Sequence record: PZ386957.1
DNA length: 64,000 bases
Reading direction: 5' to 3' (one strand)
Source of the DNA: a phage
The notes below the pieces were generated by a model, which was given only the letters and a program-made list of their open reading frames with translations, did not search any database and was not told the DNA's origin. This document shows, in pieces, positions 615 to 8,038 of this stretch (the stretch's first letter is position 1; the number at the start of each line of letters is the position of its first letter). The position numbers and the translations under genes are program-made.

Positions 615-884
615 TTAAATATCGAGAGTGTTGGTCGGTTCGTCGATCACTCCCTTCCTGAGCGTTCTATTTACTATACATTCTTGTGTGATCTTGTCAA
701 TAATGGACACCGGAATATATTTCTGATAGTGACCATATTCTATAGAGTTTTCCTCTACAAACTGCGTTGTTGCTTCAAGATAAGTCAATCCCTCTTCAAC
801 AACCAGTTTTTCGATTGCAAGACCGTTTGCTGTTTTGTTCGCGGCTTTTACCGCATGTTCATTAAGCATTGAACACCCGATCAT
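615..884 (-). CDS. 33: gp33 late-transcription co-activator
   Basis: ORF track; segment EEGLTYLEATTQFVEENSI...IPVSIIDKI matches remembered T4 gp33; position between 59 and dsbA. True start may differ (overlaps upstream ORF). Confidence 0.75.
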   Translation of the reverse strand: MIGCSMLNEHAVKAANKTANGLAIEKLVVEEGLTYLEATTQFVEENSIEYGHYQKYIPVSIIDKITQECIVNRTLRKGVIDEPTNTLDI

Positions 885-1137
885 AGAGTTCTACCGCCTC
901 GTCGCGTTCTTCTTCGAATTGTTCGCGCTGCTGCTGGTGATACAGCTTAAACAGGATACCCCACATTTTACCGTCTACGCCCAATTCTTCTTTGGCGCGT
1001 TTCTTGATTTCCTTGATCTTATCGCCGTAGGCTTCTTGAATGGTTTTCTGATCGCTGGCTTCTTTAATCAGTTGTGCCAGGGTATTGCCGTGAATAGACT
1101 CGTCGAATACTACTTTATCTGCTTTTTGTTCAGTCAT
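862..1137 (-). CDS. dsbA: DsbA-like small dsDNA-binding protein (by size and synteny)
   Basis: 91 aa ORF directly upstream of gene 33 on minus strand, the T4 dsbA position; no motif independently recognised. Confidence 0.4.
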   Translation of the reverse strand: MTEQKADKVVFDESIHGNTLAQLIKEASDQKTIQEAYGDKIKEIKKRAKEELGVDGKMWGILFKLYHQQQREQFEEERDEAVELYDRVFNA

Positions 1138-1141
1138 AATA

Positions 1142-1744
1142 TTAACCCTCTTTACTAATTAATTGAAAACCACGTTCAGCTTTAGAAATCGTGCTAGGTT
1201 GTAAATCAGCGTTCACATATTCTAGCATCATTTCTCTGATAATGTCAAGTGCTTTTTCGTCACCTGATTTTAATTCGAACTCAAGTTCATAATGAGTATT
1301 AACAGCATCGAATTCACCATATACATCTCCATAGTAGAAATTGTCTTTGCACATTTCTACTATACCATATCCAACATCAAGTGTAAACACCCTGCGATTT
1401 GTCATTACTTGCAATCGCGGTAAAACATTATTGGAGTTTATGTCTAGACCATCAACAAACTTATCAAAATCAGAAAATGTTGAAAATGTAATTTCTTCTC
1501 GGTTGAATAACCCAGATTCACTACCACCAAACTTGACCATGATCAATTCTTTTTCAACGTCAAGTCGTGCGTAAATTCCTTTACGTCGTAGTGCTAGGTC
1601 ATCGGTGTCATAATAAAATTCGTTTTTGGTGTAGGCATTTCTGCTTACAATATGATAACCATCACACATTGCTACCCACGCATCTAATATAGAATCTTCA
1701 CCATCACATGAGCTTGCGTAGTATTTTAATTCAAGTTCTTTCAT
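1142..1744 (-). CDS. CYTH-domain (triphosphate tunnel metalloenzyme / CyaB-like) protein
   Basis: N-terminal ELELK (ExExK) motif, YYDTDDLALRRKGIYARL, and C-terminal LDVGYG...ELEFELK acidic strand pattern typical of CYTH fold; inserted between rnh and dsbA. Confidence 0.55.
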   Translation of the reverse strand: MKELELKYYASSCDGEDSILDAWVAMCDGYHIVSRNAYTKNEFYYDTDDLALRRKGIYARLDVEKELIMVKFGGSESGLFNREEITFSTFSDFDKFVDGLDINSNNVLPRLQVMTNRRVFTLDVGYGIVEMCKDNFYYGDVYGEFDAVNTHYELEFELKSGDEKALDIIREMMLEYVNADLQPSTISKAERGFQLISKEG

Positions 1745-1754
1745 ATGTCAACCC

Positions 1755-2702
1755 TTAGAATTCCCCTATTTTCTGCAACATTTTAACTAACGCATTTGTT
1801 ACAAAATAGTTATAAATTTTACCGCGTGGTGCTGGTTTAGATTTTTCCCATGACTCCAGAATCTGATTCTGGATATTGTCTGGGATCTCGTCAAAGTCAA
1901 TCAACTGACGGTTTTCATCAAATCGGCGTGCTTCTTCCTCTGTCATCAAAGACTTAGGATCTTCGGCATCGAAAATTTGCTCTAACCATTTGGTCGCAAC
2001 TGGTTTAGCTCGTTCACCTTCCAATCGAGAGATAATAAAATCACTACGGCACTTGACAGAAGCTACACCGTCTTTTGCGTCACCCTTAACACATTTTACC
2101 ATAAGGTCTTTGTACGGGCTACCATATTTGCATTTCTTCCATGCTTTTTGTACTGGTGCCCACTGCTTCACATTTTTGTATTTGTGTAACTGAGTGTAGT
2201 CACCGTCGCCGGAGTTAATAAGAACTTGACGTCCTTCAATAGAAAACTTTTTAGTTAATACAGCGATTATATCATCAGCTTCAACTTTGTCAACCTTAAT
2301 AACGTGATAAGGCATGTTTTCTTTAAACTCTTCGGTGATCTTATTGATCGCAGCAAAGATCATATCCCAATCACGCGGATCTGCGTCTCGCTTTTCCTTA
2401 CGGTTGCGCTTGTAATAAGGTGCAATATCGCGTCGCCAGTAACCTTTGCTCGAATCAAATGCAAGTACCGTAATCGGGTATTGCTCTTTGAATTTTGTCA
2501 TATTATAACGCATGGTGTCAAGGATAAGATGACGGATCATGCCTTCACTAATAGGATCTTCCGGTTTAAAGGTATGCGAGATAGTAGCAATCATAAGCTG
2601 TGACATATCAATCAAATGCACACCTTCCGGCAGTTTATCTTCTGGATCATCAAAAAAATCATTAAGTGTAGCGGTAGTTTTTGTAAACGGGTTATACGTC
2701 AT
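1755..2702 (-). CDS. rnh: RNase H (5'-3' exonuclease, FEN-1 family)
   Basis: 315 aa; GYWRRD, YYKRNR, KVEADDIIAVLTKKFS, SGDGDYTQLHKY, VKQWAP, ASVKCRSDF, PRGKIYNYF match remembered T4 RNase H. Confidence 0.92.
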   Translation of the reverse strand: MTYNPFTKTTATLNDFFDDPEDKLPEGVHLIDMSQLMIATISHTFKPEDPISEGMIRHLILDTMRYNMTKFKEQYPITVLAFDSSKGYWRRDIAPYYKRNRKEKRDADPRDWDMIFAAINKITEEFKENMPYHVIKVDKVEADDIIAVLTKKFSIEGRQVLINSGDGDYTQLHKYKNVKQWAPVQKAWKKCKYGSPYKDLMVKCVKGDAKDGVASVKCRSDFIISRLEGERAKPVATKWLEQIFDAEDPKSLMTEEEARRFDENRQLIDFDEIPDNIQNQILESWEKSKPAPRGKIYNYFVTNALVKMLQKIGEF

Positions 2703-2704
2703 AA

Positions 2705-2890
2705 TTAAGTTCTCTCCACTCTCACAACAACATATTCGCCAAACGAGCTAGATACTTCACGGTCATATCCGTACTTCTCCATAACTCGCAGAATTGCATT
2801 GTTTAATTCAGCACGAAAATAATTGTAATCCTTATCGGGGATTCTGTCAACTATCCATTTTGCACCATCTGACAAATCAACTTTAACCAT
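2705..2890 (-). CDS. hypothetical protein (61 aa)
   Basis: ORF track; stop abuts rnh start (2702/2705); no motif recognised. Confidence 0.4.
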   Translation of the reverse strand: MVKVDLSDGAKWIVDRIPDKDYNYFRAELNNAILRVMEKYGYDREVSSSFGEYVVVRVERT

Positions 2891-2925
2891 ATTATCACCC
2901 TCTTATTATTTGTCAAGTCTCATTT

Positions 2926-2933
2926 TATAAATA
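2926..2933 (+). promoter_or_regulatory. late promoter box TATAAATA upstream of gene 34
   Basis: Exact TATAAATA 29 nt upstream of gene 34 ATG, followed by AGGAG RBS. Confidence 0.7.
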
Positions 2934-2961
2934 ATCTCATACTATAACAGGAGATCATATA

Positions 2962-5900
2962 ATGGCAGATTTACTAAGTCAACATTTTAAGGCCACATTT
3001 GGCTTTGATGCTGGTAATGAAAAGGTCGTCAATGTAGCATTGGCTGATAAGAACACTCTCACCGATGCCGTTAACGTTGAATTTTTCAATTACCATAACG
3101 GTATTACGCAGTATGACACAACTCGCGGTTATGATCAATACGGTACTGCAATTTATCAAAACCGTCCTTACTATGCAAAGGAAAACATCGCGAAGCCAGC
3201 GGGAGAATTTGATCCGACTAAATGGCAAGCACTGCGTACTGATCCGCGTTGGGATTACATTGCAGCGACTTCCGGCGATACTCCCCTAAAGTCTGGTGAT
3301 TATATCGCTGCGGATTGCCAATTTGCAAACTTAACATTCTCCATGCCTACTAAGCCAGCCGAAGGCGATACTATAACAGTAAAAGATATCGGTGGCAAGT
3401 GCGGTGTAAACGAATTGTCGTTCCTCGCATCTGGTCATGAGTTCTATCATAATGGCACAGTATACAATAGAAAATGGTATTGCACAACTCCTTATTCGAT
3501 GATGTATTTCATCTTTGCTCGTGGACGTTGGCATGTATACCAGACTGGAACAGAGCCGCGCGGGGTATATGCACAGCCAGCTATTGATCCAATCCAGATG
3601 CAAAACGGAGATCAGGTATTCCGTCGCAGTTCATTAGGTAATATTGTATTGAAATTACCTAAGTTTGCAAATAACGGTGATATCATCAATACCACGGACC
3701 TGGATGGATTGACCGCAACAAATCACGTTACCATCAAGACACACGAAGGAGCGCCGGACCATTCTATTGGTGCAGTCGGTGTAAAAGAGATTGTAGGCAA
3801 ACGTAGTGGTCACGGTGTATTCATCTTTGATATTACTGAAAACTTATGGCGTGTTTGGGATGGTGATCAGTCTGTACGCTTAACGCCTATCGCATCGGAT
3901 ACCCGCTTGCTGCCTAACACGTATGTCGCTGTATTCGGTGATCGCAATGTCACTTTAACATTGCCTACTAACGTAGAGATCGGGGATCGTATTCAGGTCG
4001 CATTACAATACATGCACGGTACACAAACTTGCAAGATTGTAACGTCTGGGGCAGATACCAAAATTTTAATGCAGAAAAACATGCTGCAATTCCCTAAACG
4101 CAGCGAATATCCGTTTAATGGATCTGATACGTGGAAGGAAGTAACAGAGTTATCTTTCAGTGCTGCAACTGATTATGTTCCGTATCTGGAGTTCTCTTAT
4201 TCAGAAGGTGATGACGGTAAAAAACACTGGTTAGTAGCACATGCTCATCCTATCGTAGAACGGGTAGATCCGACTCGTAAAGATCGTGTGGGTGTAATTG
4301 CGCTGGCTACTCAAGACGAAACCAATAAAAACCATGAGCAGAATCCGAGCGACGAAGTAGCTGTTACCCCTCGTGTGTTGGCTAATAAAACCGCAACCGA
4401 AACACGACGCGGTATTGCAAGAATTGCTACGCAAGCAGAAACGCATCAAAATACTGGTTCTAACTTCCTTGATGATGTTATCGTTACACCTAAAAAATTA
4501 AATGATTGTGTTGCTACTGAATCACGTCGTGGTGTGCTGGAAATTGCAACGCAAGCAGAGACTAACGAAGGTTTAGACGATACCCGCGCTATTACTCCTA
4601 AGAAATTAGAAGAACGTCGCGCGAGTGAAACGTTGGCAGGGATTGCGGAAATTATTACGGCTGGCGGTAACGCTGCGGCAGTTCGTGGTCAAGCTGGTTC
4701 CGGTATCTACGATATCAATGACCATGCTAAAATCGTTACTCCCCATAACCTGAATGAAGTTAAAGCGACAGAAACATCTCGCGGTGTAGGTTATCTGGCA
4801 ACTGACGCAGAAGTACAGGGAGCGACCGAAGCAACACCGCAAGATGCATTGTTAATCACTACCCGTACTTTGACTAAGCGTATTGCAACAGAAACGCGCA
4901 CGGGGATCGCGGAAATCGCTACTCAAGCAGAAACCAATCAGGGGCAGCTTGATACCCATATTGTTACGCCGTTAAAACTCAATAACCGTCGTGCAACCGA
5001 AACGCTACATGGTCTAGCAGAAATCGCAACTCAGGTTGAATTTGACACAGGTCGAGATGATGCTCGCATTTCTACCCCATTGAAGATTAAAACCTTCTTT
5101 GAGAATGCACAGCGTTTGAAAGTAGATCCTACTCAGGGGCTTAACCTTACTGGCGATTTGTGGCAAGGTATTACTATTCGCGGTCTGGATGCTGACGAAG
5201 CAACTAAAGGCGTTGCTAAAGTCGCTACTGTCCAGTTAACCGACGCTGGTACTGATGATACCACAATCATTACGCCGAAGAAATTACAAGGTAAAAAAGC
5301 CACTGAAGTTAAAGAAGGTATTATTCGTGTTGGTACTCAAGCCGAAACCGTAGCAGGTATACTGGATGATGTGGCAGTATCGCCGAAGAACTTCAAATAT
5401 GTTGTTCAGGTTGATGACACATGGAAAGCAACGGAAGCGCGTCGCGGTTTTCTGAAAGTATCTACAAAAGAAAACTGTTTTGTTGGTAATGACCTTGCTG
5501 GTTCCACTCAAGCAATTGATCAATATCTGCATGATGGAATCGCAGTTACCCCGCGTGGTTTAAACTATGCACTGGCTAACTTCTTACCTAAAATGGCAAC
5601 CGCTCAGAATAGTTTGAAATTAGGCAACGTAGAAGCCGCTAAATGGGCGCGTAGAGACGTTGATCAGACTATCGAGGCCAATTACACGTTTAAGAAAAAT
5701 ATCAACGTGGAGGGTGATTTAGAGTGCTTAAAATCAGGTACGTTTGAAACACTGTATGTAACCAAAAATTCAACTGACGAGGCGAGCACCGGAAATCTGG
5801 TATTAGGTATCCGTGGTCAAAATGGTCATACCGGAATTGCATTGCATGGCACAACCGGAGATATTGAGAACTCATGGGCTATGCTCGTAGGCGGTACTGG

Positions 5901-8030: not shown

Positions 8031-8038
8031 TATAAATA
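8031..8038 (+). promoter_or_regulatory. late promoter box TATAAATA upstream of gene 36
   Basis: Exact TATAAATA about 33 nt upstream of gene 36 ATG, with GAGGAAAT RBS. Confidence 0.7.

Follow-up and report, generated by a model that had tools for sequence, protein, structure and literature searches.

A CYTH-type triphosphate tunnel gene between rnh and dsbA of an RB49-like phage: a predicted hydrolase with a hypervariable central cassette

Which type of enzyme is encoded by the CYTH-like gene that separates rnh from dsbA in an RB49-like phage? The CYTH superfamily, also referred to as the triphosphate tunnel metalloenzymes (TTM), includes CyaB-type adenylyl cyclases, thiamine triphosphatases (ThTPases) and tripolyphosphatases. 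All three had been named as options in an earlier note on this DNA, together with a possible interference with signalling-based host defence. The stretch analysed here, referred to as the window, comprises 64,000 nucleotides of phage sequence (record PZ386957.1). The 200-aa ORF and the motifs on which the earlier note was based were confirmed on the minus strand by checking the coordinates by translation, and the placement between rnh and dsbA is borne out by the Pfam matches of both neighbours (Table 1). The ORF is a real gene and not a chance frame, because a match to PHROG 14893 (E 3e-90) covers all of it, and because it is found in all 59 RB49-like records and evolves under constraint. The pairwise dN/dS of the gene against RB49 and Skers is 0.27-0.36, a range that cannot be interpreted as positive or relaxed selection in the variable cassette described below because synonymous sites are saturated there (pS 0.55-0.85).

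The gene is separated from rnh by 10 nt, and its stop codon is followed after 4 nt by the start of dsbA. A plausible ribosome-binding site, TAAGGG, is found about 8 nt 5' of the start codon, and its TAA is the stop codon of rnh. Gene 34 runs on the strand opposite to rnh, the CYTH gene, dsbA and gene 33, from position 2962. The interval between gene 34 and rnh holds a 61-aa ORF (2705-2890, minus strand) that matches PHROG 3594 (unknown function, E 2e-30). It is kept as RB49ORF246c, with 93-95% identity to RB49 and Skers. No annotated gene is present in this interval in RB14, IME13 and Ac42, and KP15 has gp55 instead of gene 34.

Table 1. Features of the locus, with positions in the window.
Feature	Position	Strand	Remarks
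Gene 33 (late-transcription co-activator)	615..884	(-)	Overlaps the end of dsbA; Pfam Trans_coact 1.8e-26
dsbA (dsDNA-binding late-transcription protein), downstream neighbour	862..1137	(-)	Pfam Phage_DsbA 1.6e-20
CYTH / triphosphate tunnel metalloenzyme gene	1142..1744	(-)	ATG start, 200 aa + stop codon; orthologue of RB49ORF244c
Conserved 3' quarter, codons ~149-200	1142..1300	(-)	Divergence low, as in flanking dsbA
Plug helix S187-K-A-E-R191	1172..1186	(-)	S187, K188, R191 invariant; YgiF SKAAR
Sigma-70-like site inside the CYTH 3' end	1248..1219	(-)	TTGACA, 18-nt spacer, TAGAAT with upstream TG; 11/12
E153-L-E155-F-E157, last barrel strand (ELEFELK, residues 153-159)	1274..1288	(-)	Invariant 44/44; YgiF ELELE
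Hypervariable allelic cassette, codons ~9-148, ~420 bp	1301..1720	(-)	Sliding identity ~0.5; cf. L001, L002 3025-3445
K71	1532..1534	(-)	Equivalent to YgiF Lys-69 / ThTPase Lys-65; invariant; from YgiF alignment; role PMC4641920
Substrate strand Y58-A-R60-L-D62	1559..1573	(-)	Register from Gly at -4 and YYDT spacing
YYDT motif, Y44-Y45-D46	1607..1615	(-)	Y44, D46 invariant 44/44
ExExK motif, E3-L-E5-L-K7 within MKELELK	1724..1738	(-)	Invariant 44/44; aligned to YgiF EIELK
rnh (T4-type RNase H / 5'-3' exonuclease), upstream neighbour	1755..2702	(-)	Pfam RNaseH_C 2.4e-38, 5_3_exonuc_N 7.7e-18
Two sigma-70-like matches, candidate early promoters	2982..2954, 2916..2889 (span 2889..2982)	(-)	10/12 each

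Promoters were assigned by a consensus scan alone. The two candidate early promoters are situated upstream of the whole ORF246-rnh-CYTH-dsbA-33 string. The tight packing of the CYTH gene with rnh, dsbA, 33, 59 and 32 and these upstream sigma-70-like sites suggest that it is co-transcribed pre-replicatively with rnh, dsbA and 33, a timing that is to be regarded as putative. The additional site within the 3' end of the gene is positioned some 80 nt 5' of the dsbA start codon and may serve dsbA and gene 33 as an internal promoter, which could place an extra constraint on this part of the CYTH gene. A full 12/12 match to the sigma-70 consensus was also observed within rnh (2266-2293, minus strand; TTGACA, 16-nt spacer, TATAAT with TG), directed towards the CYTH gene. 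On the other strand, a T4-type late promoter box, TATAAATA, is found at 2926-2933, 29 nt ahead of the start of gene 34. The 64-kb window contains only one other box of this type, at 8031-8038.

The CYTH gene occupies the same place in 59/59 deposited Krischvirus records. Of the 1,586 T4-like phage records with the RNase H protein, only 59 have it at 95-99% identity, and these are the CYTH-bearing 59. The earlier note suggested that T4 has no gene at this position, and this is correct: rnh directly abuts dsbA in RB14 (Tequatrovirus, T4-type), IME13 (Tulanevirus), KP15 (Slopekvirus) and Ac42 (Twarogvirinae). In sister lineages, homologues with 31-51% identity to the ORF are found in exactly the same slot on three metagenomic contigs. 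On these contigs dsbA and gp33 are 71-75% and 76-80% identical to the window, respectively, compared to about 50% in other cultured genera. For the distant homologues P0044 and P0045, whose genomic contexts were taken from metagenomic contigs, the relatives found in cultured phages are the same 59 Krischvirus records alone. The most economical reading of this distribution is that the gene was gained once in the Krischvirus lineage.

The family is a small, isolated and phage-specific branch. A word-indexed search of 5.8 billion proteins returned 43 clusters, each at least 45% identical. An exhaustive HMMER search of 1.84 billion representatives returned three below E 1e-30, followed by about 220 generic CYTH or CYTH-CHAD proteins. 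At the DNA level, all deposited Krischvirus genomes show an identity of about 88-89% to the region and of about 88% to the window as a whole. Since nothing closer was found, the window probably derives from an undescribed species related to RB49. No tRNA genes were found in the 64-kb window. In one record, vB_EcoM_G2494 (MK327935.1, L009 601-1196), the CYTH gene is split in the annotation into a 66-aa and a 130-aa ORF, owing to a frameshift or to an error in sequencing. Provided that the split is real, the gene is probably dispensable in culture on laboratory hosts. A further difference among these genomes concerns an HNH homing endonuclease gene between 59 and 32 in vB_EcoM_Skers (L002 4802-5398), which is absent there in RB49 and in contigs L011 and L012.

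That the ORF belongs to the CYTH/TTM superfamily, as the earlier note had proposed from its motifs, is supported by profile, model and structure comparison. Pfam CYTH (PF01928) matches residues 37-193 with 33.3 bits (E 5.5e-8), above the gathering score of 23.2. The AlphaFold2 model, calculated from a family alignment of 16 sequences, is a confident one (pLDDT 91.8, pTM 0.86). It consists of a run of long beta-strands and a C-terminal helix at 188-196, and displays the eight-stranded beta-barrel tunnel with the C-terminal plug helix. In a Foldseek search against the PDB, full-length Escherichia coli YgiF comes out on top (E 7e-12, TMq 0.76), followed by thiamine triphosphatases, SaTTM, plant TTM3 and class IV cyclases with TMq 0.5-0.6. 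YgiF is also the only PDB sequence matched by the family profile (E 0.0022, residues 3-195 aligned). A single-sequence search of the PDB sequences gave nothing beyond a chance match at E 0.37, and the NCBIfam search with the ORF gave no match. Among predicted viral structures, its own orthologues are found at TM 0.93, and other viral CYTH proteins and capping-enzyme triphosphatases at about 0.5 only.

The residues of the tunnel can be assigned by comparison with YgiF and AtTTM3, for which a two-metal mechanism was described (Martinez et al. 2015, PMC4641920). In YgiF, the triphosphate and Glu-160 bind metal 1, while Glu-4, Glu-6 and Glu-162 bind metal 2, which activates the water for its attack. 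The catalytic residue is Arg-56, and Lys-69 orients the substrate and Glu-4 (PMC4641920). Conservation was counted over 44 family sequences, whose variable parts are 25-62% identical. The alignment makes E3 and E5 equivalent to the metal site 2 ligands Glu-4 and Glu-6 (roles from PMC4641920). In the last barrel strand, E155 corresponds to Glu-160 (metal 1) and E157 to Glu-162 (metal 2; roles from PMC4641920 and PMC8233210). The acidic metal-binding residues E3, E5, E155 and E157, whose absence from an alignment would have spoken against a CYTH enzyme, are thus present and invariant in 44/44. Further invariant positions are the basic tunnel residues R60, K71, R82 and R117, as well as Y44, D46, E84, K188 and R191. 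Within each strand, the invariant residues fall on positions of a single parity, in the i, i+2 pattern expected of tunnel-facing side chains, while 0/33 helix residues in the variable part are invariant.

The substrate strand requires more care. Residues 44-62 of the protein read YYDTDDLALRRKGIYARLD, in which Y44 is equivalent to Tyr-39 of mammalian ThTPase (spacing and residue numbers from PMC8615392). The HMMER alignment places Y58 opposite the catalytic Arg-56 of YgiF, which would imply a dead or unusual enzyme. This register needs a 2-residue gap and was rejected. The canonical strand of distant homologues, G-x-[A/S]-L-R-x-R, carries a Gly at -4, and so does the phage strand G56-I-Y58-A-R60-L-D62. 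The spacing from YYDT to this strand, taken without gaps, is the same as in YgiF. The ThTPase residues Tyr-39, Trp-53, Arg-55, Arg-57 and Lys-65 fall on Y44, Y58, R60, D62 and K71 with a constant offset (PMC8233210, PMC8615392). Because the Gly at -4, the YYDT spacing and the ThTPase numbering agree, R60 is taken to be the catalytic Arg, equivalent to Arg-56 of YgiF and Arg-52 of AtTTM3. Y58 then stands at the position of ThTPase Trp-53, and D62 replaces the usual second Arg. All three are highly conserved in the family (R60 in 44/44, Y58 in 41/44, D62 in 43/44). That Y58 and D62 face the tunnel is predicted from the periodicity of the strand and the register of the motif.

With the register fixed, the marks of the known CYTH types can be compared. 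Class IV cyclases are recognised by HFxxxxExExK and by two replacements, in which the beta8 ExE motif has Ala for its second Glu and the central Arg gives way to a small residue (Vogt et al. 2021, PMC8233210). In the phage protein the ExExK motif begins at residue 3 and is preceded by M1 and K2 only, so that there is no HF. The beta8 position is a Glu (E157, 44/44), and the central Arg is retained (R60, 44/44). The class IV (CyaB-type) identity, one of the options of the earlier note, is therefore rejected, as 0/3 sequence determinants are present. For the same reason the label 'adenylate cyclase' given to the orthologue in MK573636 (PHB13), OR525698 (KMB43) and OR352938 (AV108) is unsupported. 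The mark of ThTPases is the W/YxRxR motif (PMC8233210). Here it reads Y58-x-R60-x-D62, with an Asp for the second Arg, and membership in the THTPA-type thiamine triphosphatases fails on this point. The aromatic residue and the first Arg are kept, which is suggestive of a partial ThTPase likeness.

The TTM domain is closest to that of YgiF, and yet the typical features of the latter, namely the CHAD domain, the small residue at -2 and the Arg at +2, are all absent. There is no Pfam match to CHAD, and the protein stops at residue 200, just past the plug helix. The substrate strand was scanned in the 148 best CYTH relatives of the exhaustive profile search, 141 of which were scorable. Of these relatives, 122 have A, S, G or T at the -2 position and 2 have an aromatic residue there, and 132 have Arg at +2. 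The Tyr/Asp signature is therefore a real peculiarity of the Krischvirus CYTH family. In the proteins of the sister lineages, the strand reads VxRxD and IxRxN.

While the tunnel is fixed, most of the remaining gene is not. In a 60-nt sliding comparison, the DNA identity drops from 0.95-1.00 to about 0.5 right after codon 8 (~1720) and rises to 0.9 or more again at ~1300 (codon ~148). The neighbouring proteins share 92-100% identity with those of RB49 and Skers (rnh 98%), whereas the CYTH protein is 56-71% identical. Synonymous sites in the cassette are saturated between RB49 and Skers (pS 0.69-0.85). For the same pair, dS is 0.11 in the last 50 codons, as low as in the flanks; this end of the gene and its flanking genes together span 0.02-0.18. 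At least five allele classes occupy the slot: the type of the window, the RB49 type (33 clusters), the P0035 type, the Skers type (6 clusters) and P0043. Over residues 1-150 these classes are 39-62% identical. Over residues 151-200 the four Krischvirus-type classes are 84-100% identical to each other and 52-61% identical to P0043. When the 3' quarter is set against the remainder of the protein, the identity between classes is 84-100% and 43-62%, respectively. The allele of the window forms a class of its own, with 65-70% identity overall, and at most 62% over residues 1-150, to any deposited sequence. It is also rare: the exact protein is found on no record, and a one-residue variant on a single 1.3-kb metagenomic contig.

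The simplest reading of this pattern is that the central 420 bp would have been replaced repeatedly by recombination through the conserved ends, leaving the tunnel intact. Shared ancestry with the flank, with a breakpoint near codon 148, suffices for the conserved 3' quarter because its synonymous divergence matches that of the flanks. Retention of the last 50 codons for the sake of a dsbA promoter is thus not needed as an explanation; a regulatory constraint is possible all the same. Selection by a host factor may lie behind the turnover of the cassette. A second, smaller patch was observed in rnh (1871-1960). Here RB49 is only 75-87% identical to the window and to Skers, which are themselves 97-98% alike. 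In a gene that is uniform elsewhere, this patch resembles a short tract of mosaic recombination.

The reading favoured here, to which a probability of roughly 0.7 is given, is that of a free-standing, catalytically competent TTM phosphohydrolase, encoded by an accessory gene gained once; it is predicted to act as a hydrolase and not as a cyclase. By analogy with YgiF and AtTTM3, the triphosphate group would be bound at the centre of the eight-stranded beta-barrel. One Mg2+ or Mn2+ held by E155 would position the triphosphate, and a second metal held by E3, E5 and E157 would activate a water for the attack on the terminal phosphate. R60 and K71 would contribute to substrate binding and stabilisation of the leaving group, and the C-terminal helix S187-R191 would plug one end of the tunnel. 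Overall, we infer an enzyme that depends on Mg2+/Mn2+ and removes, by hydrolysis, the terminal phosphate from a molecule bearing a triphosphate. Through the exchange of very divergent alleles, the outer surface would be swapped while the tunnel stays the same.

As to the substrate, the evidence leans slightly towards an organic triphosphate, such as ThTP or an NTP, rather than free tripolyphosphate alone, because the protein has no CHAD domain, a Tyr at the Trp-53 position and an Asp for the second Arg. In mammalian ThTPase it is Trp-53 that confers the specificity (PMC8615392). A plain inorganic tripolyphosphatase like YgiF or NeuTTM, acting on free PPPi or the ends of short polyphosphate, with the Tyr/Asp pair having no effect, is nevertheless a live alternative since YgiF itself is PPPi-specific, and it is considered possible though not favoured. 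Its chemistry would be that of the favoured reading, with only the substrate being different. YgiF is the closest structure by a wide margin and was shown to be a specific PPPase that is slow on ThTP and inactive on ATP, GTP, ITP, PPi and polyP65 (PMC3440374), and two GenBank records name the gene an inorganic triphosphatase. Against a plain PPPase, however, speak the lack of CHAD and the change of two tunnel-facing positions that are highly conserved among the scorable relatives (+2 Arg in 132/141, small -2 residue in 122/141). The gain to the phage would also be doubtful, as the pyrophosphatase of E. coli already provides abundant PPPase activity (PMC3440374). An RNA 5'-triphosphatase comparable to Cet1 or to viral capping enzymes, converting pppRNA to ppRNA, for instance for a faster decay of host mRNA, is highly improbable: such enzymes give the weakest of the TTM matches (TM ~0.5), Pfam mRNA_triPase is not matched, and the protein is a small bacterial CYTH barrel with a plug helix in which an RNA-binding extension is absent. 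A class IV adenylate cyclase that makes cAMP during infection shares the superfamily of CyaB with the phage protein and has the three labelled records in its favour, but is rendered highly improbable by the failure of its three determinants. An equally remote option is an inert tunnel that serves as a triphosphate sponge or binds a host protein. Sponge proteins are known in phages for other signalling molecules. It would be hard to explain without catalysis, however, why the metal-binding and catalytic residues are invariant across sequences whose variable part is only 25-36% identical.

The earlier note had also raised an interference with host defence. In its explicit form, the enzyme would hydrolyse an immune or stress triphosphate, such as the dITP of the Kongming system or the ThTP of amino-acid starvation, and a host sensor or inhibitor, engaged in an arms race with the enzyme, would account for the hypervariable surface. 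This view is weakened by the fact that T4-like accessory genes commonly exchange alleles in a mosaic fashion, for which an arms race is not required. The sharp cassette, with about 50% DNA identity within flanks of 95-100%, and the changing surface on a fixed tunnel do form the pattern expected of a recognised protein. In starved E. coli, ThTP makes up to 50% of the thiamine, and there is no known microbial ThTPase (PMC8615392). dITP is the Kongming immune signal, and a phage enzyme that degrades it is so far unreported; the sole reported phage counter-measure is the depletion of dAMP and not the degradation of the signal (10.1101/2024.12.20.629578). RB49 is absent from that study. The dITP signal leaves room for the defence idea of the earlier note but lends it no support. 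Moreover, the ORF matches none of the PADLOC-DB defence-protein models (0 families at E <= 1), no literature was found that ties CYTH proteins to phage defence or counter-defence, and the frameshift in G2494 argues against a strong requirement on laboratory hosts. Counter-defence is therefore judged unlikely. The same low weight is given to its most specific version, a YgiF-derived triphosphatase that would have been re-tooled by the Tyr-58 and Asp-62 substitutions to erase a specific organic triphosphate signal of stress or immunity (ThTP or of the dITP type), with an arms race driving the turnover of the surface.

The CYTH family of these phages had already been flagged. The GenBank note of the RB49 orthologue has read 'similar to P45267, P30871, HI1598, ygiF' since 2003, and 'RB49ORF244c CYTH domain 0.0026' was listed by Nolan et al. 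in 2006 (PMC1524935). The gene of the window is a new and rare allele of this family. In the literature, no biochemical or genetic study was found of any phage CYTH protein, RB49 triphosphatase or Krischvirus cyclase. The chief gain is a corrected annotation, from adenylate cyclase to triphosphate-tunnel hydrolase, and a lineage marker of the RB49-like phages. The finding would be weightier if the Tyr/Asp strand gave specificity for an organic triphosphate. No microbial thiamine triphosphatase is known (PMC8615392), and a phage enzyme for the degradation of a triphosphate immune signal is so far undescribed. If true, the signal-erasing version would make this the first enzyme of a microbe or virus to be dedicated to a signal of this kind. 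The presence of a sharp cassette within a highly conserved T4-like gene cluster marks the gene as a candidate for a function in host interaction.

Among the known systems, the CYTH proteins of uncultured Caudovirales, the mRNA 5'-phosphatases of giant viruses and LEF-4 of baculoviruses have the tunnel fold in common with the phage protein, at a TM of only ~0.5. None of the other viral CYTH/TTM proteins belongs to the Krischvirus family or is found at the rnh-dsbA locus. For the CYTH triphosphatases of jumbo phages, a role in nucleotide metabolism has been proposed, in which unmodified NTPs are degraded (PMC7824862). The CyaB-type cyclases (CyaB of Aeromonas hydrophila and AC-IV of Yersinia pestis; PDB 2fjt, 3n10) share the CYTH superfamily, the ExExK motif and the two metal sites. 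The mammalian 25-kDa THTPA (PDB 3bhd, 5a64) is 15-17% identical and structurally less similar than YgiF; the second Arg of its W/YxRxR motif is an Asp in the phage protein. The CYTH-CHAD inorganic triphosphatase YgiF of E. coli (PDB 5a60/5a61) is 20-22% identical. It is chromosomal, PPPi-specific and equipped with a CHAD domain and a GxRxR strand, whereas the phage protein lacks CHAD and has YxRxD. The nearest relatives are RB49ORF244c and its Krischvirus orthologues (PHROG 14893), which have the slot, the length and the invariant catalytic residues in common with the gene of the window and are 84-88% identical to its allele over the last 50 residues.
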